773 bases of DNA from the NCBI RefSeq assembly GCF_003334405.1, contig NZ_QOWM01000052.1. The stretch is one strand, 5' to 3'. How positions within the stretch are numbered: the first letter of the stretch is position 1; the number at the start of each line of letters is the position of its first letter. The notes beneath the pieces were generated by a model. The model worked only from the letters and a program-made list of their open reading frames with translations. It did no database searches and was not told the DNA's origin. Source of the stretch: Escherichia coli (lineage in GTDB: Bacteria > Pseudomonadota > Gammaproteobacteria > Enterobacterales > Enterobacteriaceae). The translations under genes were made by a program, and so were the position numbers. Shown in pieces: positions 1 to 773 of this stretch.

Positions 1-773
1 GCCAGCGGCAGGCCGCGATGGTCGCAGTGGTACAGGTGGATTTTTCGCGCCGGCGTGTACACCGGGTCCATCTGGTTTTGCATCTGCTCCACGGTCAGGC
101 CGCACGATGCCAGCCAGCGGCGGCTTTCCTCACTCACCCGGTCAGCCAGGATTTCACTTTCCAGCCGGTCGAGCATCTGCACCAGCACCGGCGGGAACAC
201 CACACTGCCACCGTCTTCGCCGCCGGACTGCTGAAGGGTATCCGCCAGGCTGCGGCGCTGCGTTTTCGCCAGCTCACCGGTGGCGGTTTCAACCCTGATG
301 AGTGGCGTGAAGCTCCCCGGCTGATAAATCGTCTGGATGCGGGTTCTGTCGTTCTGTATCGTGGTCAGGCGGTCGCCGTCCCAGCCGTACCAGGTCACTT
401 GCGGTTTCCGTGACAGCGACATCCAGCCCGTCAGGTCCCGTTCACGCCGCCACACCCGTTTTGCCACCCTGCGGCCCAGCGGGTCGTAAAGATAGCGACT
501 TTCGACCAGCGGCTCTTCATATTGTGTCCGCGTGTAGTGCACCAGCCGGTGCTGACTGTCGTAATGGTACCGGTGAGTCCGCTCATCATCCGTGCGGATA
601 ACCCCTTCCGGGATGAGGTCGGTTTTCTCTGTCAGCCTGCCGTGACGGTCATACCGGTAAAGATAGTGCGCGTCACGGGCGATACGGTTATCCGGCCACA
701 TGCTGAGGGTGCTGTCCGGGTGCAGCTCCGGGTCGGGCAGGCGGTTACCTGCCGGGTCTGTGGCATACGGGAT
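1..773 (-). CDS. rhs: Rhs-family (YD-repeat) polymorphic toxin core protein, internal fragment; partial at both ends (N-terminal side beyond position 773, C-terminal side beyond position 1)
   Basis: Seen in sequence: the reverse-complement frame starting at position 773 (codon 1 = 773..771) runs 257 codons to position 3 with no stop, plus a 2-nt partial codon at 2..1. Hand translation: [258 protein letters not shown]. It contains canonical YD repeats ([42 protein letters not shown]) at roughly 25-38 residue spacing. Established knowledge, recalled not searched: this matches the C-terminal third of enterobacterial Rhs core proteins (E. coli RhsA/B/C-like). GC is about 63% by hand count, as expected for Rhs cores. 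The gene symbol is generic because core paralogs are near-identical and the distinguishing tip is outside the window. Confidence 0.93.

Follow-up and report, generated by a model that had tools for sequence, protein, structure and literature searches.

Rhs cores first came to light as the repeats responsible for RecA-dependent duplications in Escherichia coli K-12. The core encodes a shell of YD repeats around a variable C-terminal toxin, and its known signature is a high GC content against a genome average of about 51%. Orphan tip switching and the displacement of C-termini have already been published. The repeat nature of the E. coli Rhs cores, their recombination and the confusion that they cause to assemblers are thus established knowledge; our literature search found no paper directly on the point of Rhs-specific assembly collapse. 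A main rhs gene has been shown to recombine with its orphan, with switching of the tip (Koskiniemi et al. 2014, PMC3967940), the displacement of tips through homologous recombination has been proposed (Jackson et al. 2009, PMC2935791), and parallel amplifications of 139 kb have been traced to unequal crossover between the 3.7-kb homologies of rhsB and rhsA (Chou et al. 2015, PMC4340650). As of 2009, no natural chromosomal rearrangement via rhs had been reported (Jackson et al. 2009, PMC2935791).

The DNA analysed here (the window, a stretch of 773 bp in its entirety) comes from the interior of a GC-rich core of 3.7 kb that belongs to an E. coli rhs gene of RhsA-B-C-F type, and is read on the minus strand. 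When the six reading frames were compared, frame 0 of the minus strand was the only one open over all 773 bases. Its 257-residue translation matches over its whole length the NCBIfam profile RHS_core (NF041261) with an E-value of 7e-167 over profile positions 913-1169 of 1261; the score of 557 bits is to be read against a 2000-bit cut-off that is set for whole proteins and is out of reach for a fragment spanning one fifth of the model. The translation is also matched by YD_repeat_2x (TIGR01643, E 1e-5), while the Pfam families RHS and RHS_repeat give weak matches, the latter at residues 38-52. Open reading frames on the plus strand (18-413 and others) were considered as genes and rejected; they are short, antisense to the Rhs frame and unsupported. 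With a GC content of 58-65% the window falls among GC-rich cores (about 60% or more); the chromosome of the K-12 derivative J53 has a GC content of 50.8% (PMC5968721). The coding features are as follows.

Positions 1-773, minus strand: internal fragment of an Rhs core open reading frame, within the C-terminal third of the YD-repeat shell (open frame and RHS_core match).
Positions 639-659, minus strand: YD repeat motif YRYDRHG, fragment residues 39-45 (sequence motif).
Positions 474-494, minus strand: YD repeat motif YLYDPLG, fragment residues 94-100 (sequence motif).

The fragment corresponds to residues 899-1155 of K-12 RhsA (1377 aa) and RhsB (1411 aa). The PxxxxDPxGL motif that marks the boundary between core and tip lies at residue 1238, 83 codons beyond the coding end of the window, so the window is wholly core and contains no toxin tip. 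Matching loci have the same motif at residue 1238, followed by differing tips and by yibA, yhhH or ybfB.

A megablast search of 5,426 complete E. coli genomes with the window returned 17,528 places in 3,885 of them (~72%), with a median of 5 and a range of 1-10 per genome; all but 2 of these places are chromosomal. The 200 bases at the right end of the window occur at a median of 4 places per genome. Roughly 72% of complete E. coli genomes therefore carry this stretch, each about 4-5 times, both within full-length genes and within ybfO-type orphan fragments, and the copies are 97-100% identical. Against K-12 MG1655 the window has 5 mismatches to rhsA, 6 to rhsB, 7 to the ybfO orphan and 12 to rhsC, and these four close copies are 97.7-99.1% identical to one another within the window; rhsD and rhsE of the same strain match at 78%. 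The similarity extends well beyond the window: rhsA and rhsB agree at 99.24% of the 3,700 bp of core, their longest exact run being 1,811 bp, and rhsC is 97.0-97.2% identical to either. Variable positions among the K-12 copies number 126 of 3,700, or roughly 3% of the core. The best match among the complete genomes is 99.9% identical, no exact copy of the window being among the megablast matches, and the top matches in other strains bear the annotation RhsA, RhsB or RhsC. As the locus of the best match varies from strain to strain, the window has no assignable locus. An earlier note on this DNA had held that genomes with Rhs elements commonly carry several cores sharing kilobases of near-identical sequence and that a core window of this size cannot be uniquely placed, and on each of these points the counts given here bear it out.

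A source genome with a single core copy would offer neither a partner for recombination nor a risk of collapse. The lower end of the distribution allows for such a genome, in that some complete genomes hold one place and 1,541 of the 5,426 (28%) lack the window altogether, but the median of five speaks against it, as does the presence of at least two copies in all 11 closed strains examined (MG1655, H8 and nine sampled for the ybfO-type junction). Moreover, every allele of the window occurs among the K-12 paralogs, yet their combination is found in no single K-12 copy. We consider a single-copy source very unlikely.

The distribution of these alleles along the window is that of a mosaic. The window is identical to K-12 rhsA at about positions 1-236 and again at 370-773, and the whole of it is carried by none of the copies in K-12; the intervening differences belong to the other paralogs.

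Positions about 222-369, no strand assigned: mosaic patch with ybfO/rhsC-type alleles at 237, 239, 294, 360 and 369 (alignment to the K-12 copies).

Exchange among copies was assessed on 76 full-length ungapped copies (the first 65 fetched loci, K-12, H8 and metagenome contigs), which with the window make 77 sequences. Just 61 segregating sites account for the 62 haplotypes among them, and the four-gamete test fails for 458 of the 1,035 informative site pairs (44%; PHI-like permutation, p=0.004). The test was repeated on the 23 copies from closed genomes alone in order to exclude assembly chimeras; here 21 haplotypes were found, 384 of 861 pairs (45%) failed, and none of 2,000 PHI-like permutations reached the observed value (p<0.0005). 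Purifying selection on the protein shell would be another way of keeping the copies near-identical, and the absence of in-frame stops from all 80 copies inspected, orphans included, together with the enrichment of variation in the third position of codons (35 of the 61 segregating sites), shows the kind of constraint that this explanation calls for. It leaves unexplained, however, the identity of the copies at synonymous sites and the 45% of failed site pairs; the variant alleles show only a mild synonymous bias (29 nonsynonymous against 33 synonymous), silent orphan fragments are still 98-100% identical to the main core, and some paralogs of one genome are nearer to each other than to their counterparts at the same locus elsewhere. 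Selection in place of exchange is thus most improbable.

The within-genome resemblance is clearest in the closed genomes of TA8571 and MLI109, in which the main core and the adjacent orphan are mutually nearest (3 and 7 differences); the main-orphan pair in other strains differs at up to 24 sites. In strain 08-00022, the main core at the rhsC locus is nearest to K-12 rhsA. A module consisting of an rhsC-type tip, ybfB and an orphan occupies the kdp-ybfA site in most strains and the rpmE/yiiX-metJ site in FUJ80154 and FDAARGOS_497; the occurrence of one rhsC-type module at two chromosomal sites indicates that modules have moved between Rhs loci. The mosaic haplotypes, and the paralogs that are nearest within a genome, show that the copies trade sequence through homologous recombination and gene conversion; according to the literature, crossover between two cores yields tandem duplications between rhsB and rhsA and the switching of tips between core and orphan. 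The description of the core as a recombination substrate, made beforehand from the window by itself, agrees well with the failed site pairs and PHI-like values of the closed genomes and with the nearest pairs of TA8571 and MLI109. Of the outcomes that were listed with it, duplications are borne out by the rhsB-rhsA amplifications (PMC4340650) and tip switching by the work on Salmonella (PMC3967940). Inversions were also listed, and this part does not stand for the K-12 layout: all five K-12 rhs genes share one strand, so crossovers between them give duplications or deletions, and inversions are not expected.

Several further observations were made on these loci. In the metagenome contig L011 (3673-4722 against 5544-6562), the main core is 100% identical over 976 bp to an orphan lying 1.9 kb downstream, which reflects either a recent conversion or a single graph node that was threaded twice; main-orphan pairs in closed genomes differ at 3-24 sites within the window. 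Among the module-bearing loci compared, L073 and L074 lie at the rpmE ... yiiX-metJ site and L066-L071 at the kdpF-ybfA site, L072 is composite, and MLI109 carries a composite array that includes an ISAs1 element.

The two ends of the window coincide with points at which the copies of the repeat diverge.

Position 773, no strand assigned: right edge, the first homologous base between the full cores and the ybfO-type orphan, at rhsA gene position 2695 (alignment).
Position 1, no strand assigned: left edge, adjoining 10 clustered variable sites (-54 to 0) at which each of the four K-12 copies has its own haplotype (alignment).

Starting with base 774, the sequence of the orphan bears no relation to the full cores. 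The junction of the ybfO-type orphan is found in 2,643 of the 5,426 complete genomes, where partial matches begin exactly at query base 201, the junction base, and homology starts at the same rhsA position 2695 in six metagenome contigs (L007, L011, L030, L045, L057 and L060). At the other end, the metagenome contig L015 terminates 3 bases past the left edge of the window. Between its edges, the window follows a unique plurality path through the K-12 paralogs in 8 of 10 groups of variable sites and a tied path in the remaining 2. Graph assemblers that collapse a repeat merge simple bubbles, and break the contig where there is no majority or where the paths never rejoin. Repetition of this degree would lead short-read assemblers either to break at branch points or to thread a mixed path, and the window may accordingly represent one collapsed graph node, running from the cluster at which all paralogs differ to the orphan junction, with plurality alleles in between. 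A collapsed repeat would be the likeliest reason why the window spans exactly these bases, judging from the alignments.

The same region is recurrent in metagenome assemblies. An exact 160-base pattern taken from the window (87-246) has no match among the GTDB species-representative genomes, which fits the finding that no K-12 copy has that combination of alleles; it is present in 59 metagenome contigs. At least 9 of these end inside the core (L015, L020, L021, L028, L034, L047, L056, L061 and L062). Relative to rhsA, two others (L029 and L050) are missing about 110 bp between gene positions 1767 and 1878 and a third (L054) is missing about 86 bp around position 2643; such internal discontinuities are either allelic indels or assembly artefacts.

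Only one sequence, L010, contains the whole window exactly, among the 59 contigs and the 5,426 complete genomes alike. This contig (ENA OUVJ01000009; 7,077 bp, coverage 3.8) was assembled from a marine metagenome, and in it the upstream flank of rhsA (yibF) is joined to the RhsB tip, yhhH and yhhI. Where the contig is single-copy, over 811 bp upstream, the tip of 536 bp and the initial 926 bp downstream, it is 100% identical to MG1655. Its core contains no allele foreign to the MG1655 paralogs, yet has 34 mismatches each to rhsA and to rhsB; natural strains subjected to the same test have 4-41 private alleles. Downstream, the multi-copy H-rpt element accounts for all 23 mismatches, 22 of which equal other K-12 copies of H-rpt. 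L010 is thus E. coli DNA of K-12 type in which the repeats have been assembled as mixtures of paralogs, and its presence in a marine metagenome suggests contamination with a laboratory strain. We rejected the lack of private alleles as proof of a K-12 origin for the window by itself, rhsA of H8 having none in the window either; the test is informative for the whole of L010 only.

These results bear on whether the window is a collapsed repeat or a genuine, correctly assembled allele, such as an H8-like rhsA, that was cut from a longer sequence, in which case the element would still be multi-copy. A natural allele, the rhsA of H8 (a closed genome), is 1 base away from the window, whose sequence thus need not be a consensus made by an assembler; an exact copy lies within the 7,077-bp L010, a natural allele of ancestral-like character would likewise carry the plurality alleles, and the position of the ends on branch points may come from how the stretch was cut. 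On the other hand, out of the 3.7 kb of a core, the right end has fallen exactly on one particular junction, a variable site adjoins the left end, and the reported length of the source is itself 773; for ends placed as these two are, in a window cut at random, we estimate that the joint chance would be on the order of 1e-5. The carrier of the exact match, moreover, is itself a chimera of paralogs. A genuine allele is on balance improbable, though a substantial minority reading. Returning to the collapsed repeat, we regard it as a serious possibility, a little short of an even one, that the window is a consensus path through Rhs paralogs of K-12 type and not a real allele, and that the same weakness reaches genomes deposited as 'complete', for example those of J53. 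The risk of collapse and mis-joining had been named in advance, and it is visible in the placement of the window ends on branch points, in the chimeric structure of L010 and in the metagenome contigs (at least 9 of 59) that end inside the core. Taken together, it is highly probable that the window is a piece of a multi-copy Rhs core that exchanges sequence between its copies and is prone to assembly breaks and mixed paths.

The join of yibF, core, RhsB tip and yhhH is present in closed genomes too. At least 15 closed assemblies of J53 contain reciprocal rhsA/rhsB hybrids with swapped flanks (nikR-Rhs-yibA and yibF-Rhs-yhhH). In J53-p1-pV-hybrid-1, the two reciprocal joins, nikR-[rhsB 5'::rhsA 3']-yibA and yibF-[rhsA 5'::rhsB 3']-yhhH-yhhI-yhhJ-rbbA, are separated by about 745 kb and run on opposite strands. 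We compared these hybrid loci (L075, NZ_CP068706.1 4,096,355-4,100,590; L076, the same record, 159,696-163,829) with those of the Calgary assembly of J53 (L078 and L079, NZ_CP028702.1). The latter (CP028702) retains the parental flanks, rhsB (plus strand) and rhsA (minus strand) being 742 kb apart, and its rhsB differs from that of MG1655 by 1 base. The authors of the Calgary assembly reported an inversion of 825,667 bp between two IS5 copies, at MG1655 coordinates 3,652,638 to 4,476,957 (PMC5968721). One endpoint of this inversion falls between rhsB and rhsA, so that the two cores became inverted repeats in J53. In the other J53 assemblies, the interval between rhsA and rhsB, oriC included, is inverted relative to the Calgary assembly. 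The hybrids L075 and L076 are identical over their central 3.4 kb (rhs gene positions 82-3468), which could be a gene conversion tract or an artefact of polishing or of the graph, and at positions 954, 2889, 2892, 2951, 3099 and 3229 they carry MG1655 rhsC alleles that are absent from rhsA and rhsB. The hybrids reflect either a real 742-kb inversion across oriC via the Rhs cores, which the preceding IS5 inversion would have enabled, or systematic mis-bridging and homogenisation by hybrid assemblers. We found no mention of them in the open-access literature searched for J53 and rhs. They are of concern wherever J53 assemblies serve as the reference in transconjugant genomics.

In practical terms, neither a locus nor a toxin tip can be assigned to a 773-bp contig of Rhs core, and the base calls at about 25 paralog-variable sites in such a contig may be a mixture. 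Toxin and immunity repertoires drawn from short-read or metagenome assemblies are unreliable at Rhs loci.

The nearest relatives of the window are rhsA, rhsB and rhsC of K-12 (RhsA-B-C-F, the 'clade I' of Jackson et al. 2009), to which it is 98.4-99.4% identical at the nucleotide level over 773 bases. It shares with them the reading frame, residues 899-1155 and the GC-rich core, and differs in that it pairs flanks of rhsA/B type with a patch of ybfO/rhsC type. The ybfO-type orphan, located downstream of rhsC-ybfB, includes the full window with 7 mismatches in K-12; unlike the full gene it lacks the first 2,694 bases and the start codon, is annotated as a pseudogene and ends in a different tip. 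The shorter yibJ-type orphan shares one part of the window.

Positions 1-207, minus strand: segment common to the yibJ-type orphan downstream of rhsA, at 96.6% identity (alignment).

The same layout, with a full rhs gene and behind it an orphan having the 3' end of the core in common, occurs in Salmonella Typhimurium LT2, where recombination within the shared 522 bp (95% identity) moves the orphan tip onto the full gene (PMC3967940). LT2 represents a different Rhs lineage and species, and the corresponding shared stretch of E. coli is both longer and closer in sequence, at about 1,020 bp and 97-100% identity. At the level of the protein, residues 17-171 of the fragment align to the late YD-repeat cocoon of Pseudomonas aeruginosa Tse5 (8cp6) and of the Salmonella bongori Rhs core (8qjd) with E-values of 9e-14 to 5e-8, a distant sequence similarity; residues from about 172 to 257 gave no sequence alignment to any solved chain. 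As a genomic repeat, the Rhs core resembles rrn operons, IS elements and H-rpt/ISAs1, all of which are dispersed, near-identical substrates of kilobase length for RecA-dependent crossover that bring about rearrangements and interrupt assemblies, and the H-rpt adjoining the rhsB tip in L010 shows the same mixing of paralogs as the Rhs core. As a point of difference, the Rhs core is protein-coding and has no mobility function of its own.
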